A stretch of 33,695 bases of DNA from Candidatus Woesearchaeota archaeon (GCA_018302765.1 JAGVZG010000025.1:1-33695); one strand, 5' to 3'. Shown: positions 8,363 to 29,135, counted from the first letter of the stretch. Notes: generated from the letters alone by a model not told the origin. Numbers and translations: made by a program.

Positions 8363-8476
8363 GGGCTCGTAGCGCAGCCAGGAAGCTTCTCAAACCTTAG
8401 TTAAGGTAAGAGTATTGGTATATAGCGCAGCAGGTTCCTAACCTGTTGGTCGGGGGTTCAAATCCCCTCGGGCCCG
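8363..8476 (+). tRNA. tRNA-Arg(CCT) with a 39-nt D-loop intron (about 8383-8421, position ~19/20)
   Basis: Acceptor GGGCTCG/CGGGCCC, anticodon arm GCAGG-TTCCTAA-CCTGT, T arm GGGGG-TTCAAAT-CCCCT. The D loop AGCCAGG|ATA is restored after excision; central helix GCCA/TGGT. Confidence 0.9.
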
Positions 8477-12722: not shown

Positions 12723-12809
12723 TGCACTAGCCGGGATTTGAACCCGGATGAAGAGCTAACTTCTAAATACCATTGGAAGGCTCTCATGCTACCATTGCAT
12801 CACTAGTGC
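12723..12809 (-). tRNA. tRNA-Gly(TCC) with a 16-nt canonical 37/38 intron (12758-12773)
   Basis: GCACTAG/CTAGTGC acceptor, AGAGC-CTTCCA|A-GCTCT anticodon arm, BHB central helix CTTC/GAAG. Confidence 0.93.
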
Positions 12810-27771: not shown

Positions 27772-27823
27772 GTTATAAAGTCTGTTTAAGAACTTTAAAA
27801 ACATTACTGTGAAGAAATATAAG

Positions 27824-28008
27824 TGCGGGGGACAGGATTTTCTCATAAGTCTAGGAGTTGATAATAACCTAGGTTCTTATATTTGAACCTGCGTAGGCCT
27901 TAGCCACAGGATATCTTATTGCCTGATCTTAAGTTTAGCAAAGCTTCTCTAGCTTACCTGCCCATATAGTCCTTCTTACGAAGATTGACCAGGCTCTGGC
28001 ACCCCCGC
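27824..28008 (-). tRNA. tRNA-Leu(TAA) with four introns (21/22: 27966-27984; 30/31: 27935-27956; 37/38: 27913-27927; ~58/59: 27839-27882)
   Basis: Removing 19+22+15+44 nt from 185 nt gives an 85-nt canonical archaeal Leu: GCGGGGG TG CCAG AGCCTGGTCAA ATGG G CAGGA CTTAAGA TCCTG TGGCTAAGGCCTAC GCAGG TTCAAAT CCTGT CCCCCGC A. Confidence 0.87.
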
Positions 28009-28033
28009 TTAAAATAAAAGAATCAGATATTAT

Positions 28034-28048
28034 TTTATAAAGTTTTGG
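28034..28048 (-). promoter_or_regulatory. BRE-TATA promoter of tRNA-Leu
   Basis: CCAAAACTTTATAAA on the minus strand, about 26 nt upstream of the tRNA. Confidence 0.6.
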
Positions 28049-28118: not shown

Positions 28119-29135
28119 ATGTCTTTGCCATTAATCCAAGAAACAGTTCAAGAATTTAAAGTTCCTAATATAAAATATGAAGAAAATATAGATATTTCTA
28201 CTTATCAAGGCTATAAGAAAAAACTAGAAAAACAAGGATATAGATTTATTGGCGAACATTCTGCAGTTAAAATATGTGAGTGGACTGCTAAAAGCCTTAA
28301 AAATCAAGGTCATTGTTACAAGCAGAAATTCTACGGCATAAGAAGCCACAGATGCGGTCAACTAAGTGTTGCAGTTAATTTTTGTGATAAGTCTTGCACA
28401 TACTGCTGGAGGGAAAGAAATAATTTTCCATTTACAAAAATTGATAATCCTAAAGAATTATTAGCAAAAATACCAGAGCACCAATTCAAATTGCTTAGTG
28501 GTTATGGTGGAAACCAAGATATCAATAAAGATAAATGGAATCAAATAAAGGAAATAAGTCATTTTGCCATAAGTCTTACAGGTGAGAACTTATACTATCC
28601 AAAAATAAATGAGTTAATTAGAGAAATTAAGACACAAGGCAAAACGAGTTTTGTTGTTACTCATGGTGGATTTCCAGAAGCAATGGAAAAATTAGAGCCA
28701 CCAACCCAGCTTTATTTAAGTATGGATACTGTGGATGAAGAAAATTTCAAAGAAATACAAAGACCAATTCATAAAGATGCCTGGAATAGGTGGTTAAAAA
28801 GCTTAGATGCTTTGAGGAATATTAGAAATAAGACAAGGACAGTAATTAGATATACATTAATCAAAGGACTTAATGACGTTAATCATAAAAATATAGCAGA
28901 CCTATTTGAAAGAGGAGATCCTCATTTTATAGAAATTAAAAGTTATATACATGTTGGTGCTAGCAGGGAAAATCTACAAAGAAAAAATATGTCAACAATA
29001 GAAGAAGTTAGGGACTTTGCTAAAGAAATTGAAAAGCGCTGCAGCTATAAAATAATAGATGAACATATTCCATCTAGAGTTGTTCTAATGGCAAAAGAAG
29101 ACTATCCTTGGAGAATTATAAAATTTGATGATTAA
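28119..29135 (+). CDS. tyw1: 4-demethylwyosine synthase Taw1/Tyw1 (radical SAM)
   Basis: GY...GEHSAVKIC.W, CYKQKFYGI.SHRC (auxiliary-cluster Cys and pyruvate Lys), CDKSCTYC, AISLTGE, YIHVGASR. Confidence 0.93.
   Translation: MSLPLIQETVQEFKVPNIKYEENIDISTYQGYKKKLEKQGYRFIGEHSAVKICEWTAKSLKNQGHCYKQKFYGIRSHRCGQLSVAVNFCDKSCTYCWRERNNFPFTKIDNPKELLAKIPEHQFKLLSGYGGNQDINKDKWNQIKEISHFAISLTGENLYYPKINELIREIKTQGKTSFVVTHGGFPEAMEKLEPPTQLYLSMDTVDEENFKEIQRPIHKDAWNRWLKSLDALRNIRNKTRTVIRYTLIKGLNDVNHKNIADLFERGDPHFIEIKSYIHVGASRENLQRKNMSTIEEVRDFAKEIEKRCSYKIIDEHIPSRVVLMAKEDYPWRIIKFDD

Follow-up and report, generated by a model that had tools for sequence, protein, structure and literature searches.

The gene at positions 27824-28008 (minus strand) of the window, by which we mean the whole 33,695-nucleotide stretch of Candidatus Woesearchaeota DNA that was analysed, is very probably a functional, single-copy tRNA-Leu(UAA) of a small DPANN archaeon, with four introns that would be spliced by EndA and five exons that would be joined by RtcB. 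The original prediction of a tRNA-Leu(UAA) with introns in the D arm, anticodon stem, anticodon loop and T loop is upheld by the sequence, by the structure and, above all, by the relatives of this genome.

The gene is 185 nt long, does not encode the CCA end and was identified by ARAGORN in its spliced form (all features of the gene lie on the minus strand). Exon 1 (24 nt, 27985-28008) comprises the acceptor 5' strand, U8, the D stem 5' strand and the D loop to A21, and has the same sequence in a genome of the same genus (G002). It is followed, at the D-loop/D-stem junction (ca. 21/22), by intron 1 (19 nt, 27966-27984, gene positions 25-43) and then by exon 2 (9 nt, 27957-27965), with the D stem 3' strand, position 26 and anticodon-stem positions 27-30. 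Intron 2 (22 nt, 27935-27956, gene positions 53-74) is located at 30/31, and separates exon 2 from the very short exon 3 (7 nt, ACTTAAG, 27928-27934), which contains position 31, the anticodon UAA and G37. Intron 3 (15 nt, 27913-27927, gene positions 82-96) is at the canonical 37/38 site. Exon 4 (31 nt, 27882-27912) extends from position 38 through the anticodon stem 3' strand, the long variable arm and the T stem 5' strand to A59 in the T loop, where intron 4 (44 nt, 27838-27881, gene positions 128-171) is inserted, at 59/60 according to the BHB rule. Finally, exon 5 (14 nt, 27824-27837) provides T60, the T stem 3' strand, the acceptor 3' strand and the discriminator A73. An archaeal promoter-like element, AAAAC followed by TTTATAAAA (28033-28045, minus strand), has its centre ca. 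29 nt upstream of G1 and is a candidate promoter for the gene.

The neighbourhood of the gene deserves some comments. A mechanically defined ORF for a 2269-aa beta-helix protein starts at an ATG within intron 4 and crosses the tRNA 3' exon (window 27804-27846, minus strand), the next in-frame ATG being at 27804, 20 nt beyond the tRNA, and gene callers may stretch this protein into the tRNA gene. The divergent neighbour (28119-29135, plus strand) is a radical-SAM wyosine-formation protein (Taw1/TYW1-like, involved in tRNA-Phe G37 modification), a gene that is missing in G002 between the tRNA-Leu(UAA) and IMPDH.

Excision of the four inserts (19+22+15+44 = 100 of the 185 nt) leaves an 85-nt tRNA-Leu(taa) that is accepted by ARAGORN, thereby reproducing both the intronic share and the type II product that had been predicted. 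The cloverleaf restored in this way, as expected for BHB introns, has a 7-bp acceptor stem, a 5-bp T stem, a TTCAAAT T loop, G37, A73 and a long variable arm, and in the ARAGORN drawing it displays all the hallmarks of a class II tRNA-Leu. The exons have a GC content of 60%, compared with ca. 33% for the inserts (counted by hand) and 30% for the genome. The unspliced locus was called neither by ARAGORN (with or without its intron option) nor by Rfam at the gathering score, and the single tRNA that ARAGORN and Rfam called across the full window was a Trp gene (12723-12809). The five exons are colinear inside the 185 nt, which separates this gene from the split and permuted tRNA genes, and the inserts, of 15-44 nt, do not correspond to group I or group II self-splicing introns, the only Rfam match in the window being one tRNA.

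With the exons that flank them, introns 1-3 can be folded into near-canonical BHB motifs, and intron 4 into a relaxed one. The motif of intron 1 has the hBHBh' form, with an outer helix GCCT/GGGC, a central helix GGTC/GACT and an inner helix CTTC/GAAG (local fold of -11.3 kcal/mol), a 5' bulge AAU (here and below, bulges are cut after the second nucleotide) and, on the 3' side, a bulge to which the local fold gives 3-4 nt. That of intron 2 has the central helix GGCA/TGCT, bulges GGT and AAA and an inner helix AAGCT/AGCTT, with an outer helix that is nearly absent. For intron 3, the anticodon stem acts as outer helix, the central helix CTTA/TAAG is weak (three A-U pairs and one C-G pair), the bulges are AGA and ATA, and a loop of 8 nt replaces the inner helix. 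The motif of intron 4 uses the T stem as outer helix and is more relaxed, its central helix being TTC/GAA plus an A.A mismatch, flanked by two AAT bulges of 3 nt each; the local fold gives an inner helix ATAAG/CTTAT with one extra G adjoining and a second stem CTAGG/CCTAG. Cutting after the second nucleotide of 3-nt bulges around a 4-bp helix yields the exact mature sequence for introns 1-3. On sequence grounds, introns 1 and 2 have only one possible placement each, the boundary of intron 3 slides by up to 3 nt and that of intron 4 slides over AAAT; the assignments to 37/38 and 59/60 are made because the BHB rule selects among these sliding positions. All the helices originally named for introns 1-3 are present, with the small correction that the 3' bulge of intron 1 measures 3-4 nt. 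As for intron 4, both of its stems and the relaxed motif were borne out, and the boundary, originally given as uncertain by 1-2 nt, is corrected to a slide over AAAT that the BHB rule fixes.

The strongest evidence came from related genomes. To obtain orthologs, 40 relatives were searched with the locus by BLAST, and the mature sequence was then submitted to spliced alignment. The intron counts in distant relatives are those of our own aligner, with inspection by eye limited to the cases named here, and five divergent loci in which its 5' parts were unreliable (G029, G048, G141, G080, G036) were not counted. Most of the 37 aligned ortholog loci contained one to four inserts at shared junctions, and at least 10 had four. 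In G002 the exons are 100% identical to ours and only the 30/31 and 37/38 introns are present, so the joins of exon 1 to exon 2 and of exon 4 to exon 5 are visible there as plain DNA. Other genomes have the D-loop intron only (G017), the T-loop intron only (G037) or the 37/38 intron only (G004 and G032), while G006 has three introns, G038 four at the same sites as in our gene and G012 also four, one of them at an extra site (15/16). G002, G017, G012 and G008 have also kept the IMPDH gene adjoining the tRNA, in support of the orthology. This presence and absence of introns among close relatives makes the locus a clean system in which to study intron gain and loss.

At these shared junctions the BHB helices covary. 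The intron 1 site is occupied in G006, G017, G012 and G038, and the inner helix appears as CTTC/GAAG, CTCC/GGAG or CTTCC/GGAAG. The arrangement with introns at 30/31 and 37/38 was matched, as a pattern, in 53 of 240 genomes of the order. In 29 of 30 orthologs all four pairs of the intron 2 central helix are preserved, with compensatory exon/intron pair types (GGCA:TGCY, CGCA:TGCG, CGTA:TACG), and the inner helix of this intron differs in sequence nearly everywhere and nonetheless retains a mean terminal run of 3.8 bp, versus 0.66 in shuffles. The Leu(UAA) genes of G038, G037, G184 and G054 also have a T-loop intron at this site, and intron 4 was not found in the other Leu(UAA) orthologs examined from the genome's own family (f1). 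We consider this comparative evidence decisive for the four-intron reading. Introns 2 (30/31) and 3 (37/38) are old and occur widely across the order, and intron 1 (D loop) is common to the family.

Some of the Leu(UAA) orthologs showed another peculiarity, a unit ACTCAGA (an anticodon loop for CAG) within the 30/31 intron, just before the true exon ACTTAAG. The unit is near-invariant and preceded by a second copy of the 3' splice module (TGCY+AA). It was found in L093 (G008), L095 (G012), L091 (G040), L004 (G038), L107 (G063), L092 (G056), L079 (G145) and L090 (G065), as well as in G170, G117, G085 and G101, and in G165, G237, G239 and G071 it is located directly 3' of the 5' exon. In the seven carriers checked by eye (7/7), position 34 is faced by a G in the central-helix strand of intron 3 (TGAG, TGGG, GGAG), which can therefore pair with either loop; non-carriers, e.g., our genome (G000) and G032, have a TAAG strand. 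The gene in the window has no such unit. One possibility raised by these sequences is that ACTCAGA and ACTTAAG are mutually exclusive anticodon exons, by which one gene would produce either Leu-UAA or Leu-CAG. A stand-alone Leu(CAG) gene was not found in G008, but our genome lacks one as well, and the comparison is non-discriminating.

The gene appears to be indispensable. The genome (1.02 Mb, 28 contigs) has a completeness rating of 100%, and spliced alignment of the mature tRNA against all of it (with intron length limited to 130 nt) gave a score of 142, the maximum, at this locus, against 87-102 for three other Leu genes, which indicates that the match is not due to chance. Beyond these four Leu genes nothing in the 1.02 Mb scored 50 or more. 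The other three read CAA, UAG and AAG, and no second Leu(UAA) gene was found, as the original prediction required, leaving this locus as the only gene able to decode UUA. This codon represents 48% of the leucine codons and 47 per 1000 of all codons (ORFs of at least 250 codons). In other words, a heavily used tRNA, which decodes ca. 4.7% of the codons, is maintained as five pieces of 7-31 nt.

One of the other Leu genes is unusual in itself. The gene at C5:38286-38437 (minus strand) has the anticodon loop CTAAGGA, i.e., an anticodon AAG with A34, which to our knowledge is not expected in archaea. Leu(AAG) is also found in L016 (G001), L113 (G008) and L059 (G172), and the arm with the anticodon is uninterrupted in G001 and G008, which makes the reading independent of intron placement. 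The codons CUU and CUC make up 15.7% and 1.3% of the leucine codons in our genome. The T-loop introns (37 nt) of this Leu(AAG) gene and of Leu(CAA) (C27:121089-121235) are clearly homologous to one another but not to intron 4 of Leu(UAA), so that a single isotype has two intron families at one T-loop site.

The enzymes required for BHB introns are both encoded in the genome. There is one EndA, a 212-aa ORF that matches both PF01974 and PF02778 and has an N-terminal and a catalytic domain, at C12:28163-28798 (minus strand; L071:1474-2112), and one RtcB gene (565 bits). No EndA paralog or gene for a second subunit was detected at E <0.7 in the genome. The best solved relatives of this EndA are the alpha subunit of N. 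equitans and the alpha4 enzyme of M. jannaschii (1A79), with which it is colinear (168 vs. 166 aa); pairwise alignment with the latter revealed no insert corresponding to a broad-specificity loop (L1/CSL, L2/ASL or L3), and there is a 6-residue gap where the N. equitans subunit (3IEY_A) has the lysine-rich kkGKrser before the catalytic histidine. An extra charged N-terminal stretch of ca. 44 aa would be present if the TTG start is real. From its sequence, then, this EndA looks like a plain alpha4-like enzyme without loop insert. Lysine-rich and loop inserts have been tied to the cleavage of relaxed, non-canonical motifs (PMC5829648, PMC3239211), and a plain enzyme is notable in a genome so rich in non-canonical introns. 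The EndA and its introns provide a good test of the loop-specificity rule.

In the reading that we favour, a single precursor of ca. 185 nt would be transcribed from the TATA-like element located ca. 29 nt upstream, the lone EndA would cut both bulges of the BHB at each of the four introns, RtcB would ligate the exons, and the resulting 85-nt class II tRNA would then receive its CCA. We estimated how the four motifs become available from the central-helix probabilities in partition-function folds of the successive precursor states. In the raw precursor these probabilities were 0.02 for intron 1, 0.65 for intron 2, 0.00 for intron 3 and 0.40 for intron 4. With intron 2 removed they became 0.43 for intron 1, 0.33 for intron 3 and 0.39 for intron 4, and with introns 2 and 3 removed, 0.82 for intron 1 and 0.39 for intron 4; removal of introns 1 and 2 left intron 3 at 0.00 and intron 4 at 0.40. 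Introns 2 and 4 would thus be presented in the raw precursor, intron 3 after the removal of intron 2, and intron 1 best after that of intron 3. The models suggest a preferred order 2, 3, 1, with intron 4 independent.

Two sequence features are in line with this order. The helix of intron 2 takes up two nucleotides of the anticodon stem, and G37 together with the 7 nt that open intron 3 (GATCAGGC = GAUCAGGC) can form 8 bp with the D loop (GCCTGGTC = GCCUGGUC), the complementary stretches being 27920-27928 and 27987-27994 (minus strand). The D-loop stretch involved doubles as a strand of the intron 1 helices, and the pairing may gate the splicing order. The claim that splicing must be ordered, the 37/38 motif requiring prior removal of the 30/31 intron, agrees with these folding models as far as the appearance of the intron 3 motif after removal of intron 2 is concerned, but "must" is too strong a word for a thermodynamic prediction. 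Ordered removal has already been described for nearby BHB introns (PMC8450103, PMC3728597). Among the relatives, pairing of the D loop with the 37/38 intron covaries in G040 (GAGTCTGGTC/GGTCAGACTT), in G145 (CCGGAA/TTCCGG) and in G012, G023 and G056 (CTGGTC/GACCAG), and is absent in G038, G063, G032, G004 and G036.

Intron 4 contains the 25-nt core (AAGAACCTAGGTTATTATCAACTCC, 27854-27878, minus strand) of a dispersed palindromic repeat. The repeat consists of ATAAGAACCNAGGTTCTTAT, a perfect 20-nt palindrome, plus a tail CAACTCC (ca. 8 nt), and the core in intron 4 is identical to the 25-nt consensus at 24 of 25 positions. It was found in 25 of 201 genomes of the order, mostly of one family, with up to 19 copies per genome, while a reversed control pattern had zero matches in the same 201 genomes; in our genome there is a single copy. 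Among the 31 copies analysed with their flanks (relatives L041-L070), seven are within T-loop introns, in tRNA genes of various kinds (Arg-, Glu-, Ser- and Leu-like), and a D loop holds one more, several are reversed and located in anticodon-loop introns of tRNA genes on the opposite strand, two abut tRNA 5' ends and the remainder are in AT-rich intergenic DNA. In the related T-loop introns a 3' module GAA..AAT is kept and the inner helix varies, implying that T-loop introns of this kind are tolerated and spliced.

Dispersed, near-identical copies with a palindrome are what characterizes MITE- or REP-like elements, and the sequences suggest that intron 4 is a comparatively recent gain from a mobile or copy-prone element. 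We propose only tentatively, and with more doubt than confidence, that it is a recent copy of a small mobile element that seeds new tRNA introns in this order. Such an element would land, facing either way, in the T, D and anticodon loops of a wide range of tRNA genes, as well as in intergenic DNA, and would survive inside tRNA genes as long as its flanks can form a BHB motif removable by EndA. TnpB was considered as a mobilising gene of the repeat: TnpB-type genes are present in two of four carrier genomes and adjoin copies at one place only, and TnpB/IS605 was dropped as the mobiliser since the adjacency is not consistent. A possible resemblance of the repeat tail to the 3' end of 16S rRNA was also abandoned because the hairpin register appears not to fit. 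Finally, what looked like a conserved novel RNA around some copies gave nothing in Rfam, and with the repeat deleted, ARAGORN identified these regions as tRNA genes of the opposite strand. The mechanism by which archaeal tRNA genes gain introns has been called unclear (PMC5829648), and seeding by such an element, if true, would provide a concrete and testable one.

There are other possible explanations for a tRNA gene in this condition. One would be that it is a decaying pseudogene, with inserts that are junk and never removed, and the facts that standard tRNA finders miss it and that intron 4 holds a repeat known also outside tRNA genes could be read in this way. However, this is the sole gene decoding UUA, the commonest Leu codon, its exons are 100% identical to those of G002 while the introns have diverged, and each insert is at a junction that is also occupied in relatives, with BHB helices that covary, all of which makes decay extremely improbable. 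An equally slight chance is given to the idea that one or more of the inserts are assembly artefacts of a metagenome-assembled genome. The repeat of intron 4 could in principle mislead an assembler, but it is single-copy here, and independent assemblies contain intron 1 (G006, G017, G012), introns 2 and 3 (dozens of genomes) and an intron at the site of intron 4 (G038, G037, G184, G054).

A third alternative accepts the gene as functional and regards intron 4 as a recently arrived mobile palindrome that is spliced poorly, or with non-BHB help, and represents a burden. Several of its properties would fit: the relaxed motif, with a 3-bp central helix, a mismatch and an extra nucleotide, the absence from all other f1-family orthologs examined, the near identity (24/25) of its core with a repeat that other genomes of the order carry in as many as 19 copies each, and an EndA that lacks the known specificity loops. 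Against this, the same core together with the GAA..AAT module occurs in T-loop introns of at least six other tRNA genes in other genomes, and the tRNA is indispensable. We regard this explanation as unlikely, although somewhat less so than the previous two. A functional tRNA-Leu(UAA) with four introns removed by EndA is by far the better supported reading.

This gene is not an isolated oddity within its genome. The initiator tRNA-Met (C16:73081-73288, minus strand) has six introns, of 16, 22, 28, 22, 17 and 30 nt, and exons of 4-21 nt; once spliced it is a 73-nt tRNA-Met(cat) (ARAGORN), with an A1:U72 pair and an anticodon stem that has three G:C pairs at its base. It was located by a consensus probe and had not been found by a search for an intact acceptor stem, because that stem is split by an intron. 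Among ca. 32 tRNA genes recognised by their end structure, only two have an intron-less length. Within the window, two other tRNA genes, at 8363-8476 (plus strand, 114 nt) and 12723-12809 (minus strand, 87 nt), have intron-containing lengths, and Rfam sees only a part of the first (27.9 bits). Kaneta et al. (2018) had been unable to complete the tRNA sets of Woese- and Pacearchaeota, and for 208 complete genomes of the phylum a 2026 preprint still gives 26-54 tRNAs each, with gaps that it leaves unexplained. Genes such as our Leu(UAA) and the six-intron initiator explain why standard tools produce incomplete tRNA sets in these archaea.

With regard to known systems, up to three introns per archaeal tRNA gene is the figure stated in the tRNAscan-SE 2.0 paper (PMC8450103), and our four-intron gene pushes this accepted limit. 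The maximum of three given in the original prediction is thus still in print, but it is outdated, since four-intron tRNAs of Asgard archaea are listed in Supplementary Data 4 of Valentin-Alvarado et al. (2024) (PMC11291895) and the initiator tRNA of our own genome has six. Four introns are above the printed maximum and yet no record, nor are they extreme in their own genome, given the six of the initiator. A close parallel is found in the Thermoproteales (Pyrobaculum, Thermofilum and Caldivirga; Sugahara et al., 2007/2008), as summarized in PMC8450103 and PMC3728597, in which colinear tRNA genes are likewise interrupted more than once by short BHB introns, both canonical and non-canonical in position (D arm, anticodon stem and T loop). 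Close-set introns, one of which has to be removed before the next motif can form, are also described for them (PMC8450103). The Thermoproteales, however, have a published maximum of three introns and an (alpha-beta)2 EndA with a Crenarchaea-specific loop, whereas here we find four, in a DPANN genome with a single alpha4-like EndA.

In Atabeyarchaeia and Freyarchaeia (PMC11291895) introns are present in 92-95% of the tRNA genes and more than half have several, and the genes with four are Arg-TCT, Ile2-CAT and Leu-GAG in Freyarchaeia and Trp in Atabeyarchaeia. These Asgard archaea belong to a different superphylum, with genomes neither reduced nor AT-rich, and their four-intron cases appear in a supplementary table only, with no analysis of structure or comparison among genomes. 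Up to three BHB introns per gene are known in the red alga Cyanidioschyzon merolae (PMC3728597), at 37/38 and in the D arm and T loop as here, but this organism is a eukaryote whose Sen complex has four subunits, and its order of removal, followed by RT-PCR, tracks BHB stability, while the order proposed here is only modelled.

A further comparison is with the initiator tRNA-Met of the same genome, served by the same enzymes and interrupted by similarly short, AT-rich BHB inserts, six in that case versus four in Leu(UAA). As to the origin of such introns, Fujishima et al. (in Mol Biol Evol, 2010) are reported to have found in Thermoproteales related introns at equivalent sites of different tRNA genes, which were interpreted as gains by transposition. 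The core of intron 4 is likewise shared by T-loop introns of Arg-, Glu-, Ser- and Leu-like genes, but, unlike in those families, what is shared here is a palindrome with a tail that is also found reversed, in D- and anticodon-loop introns and in intergenic DNA.
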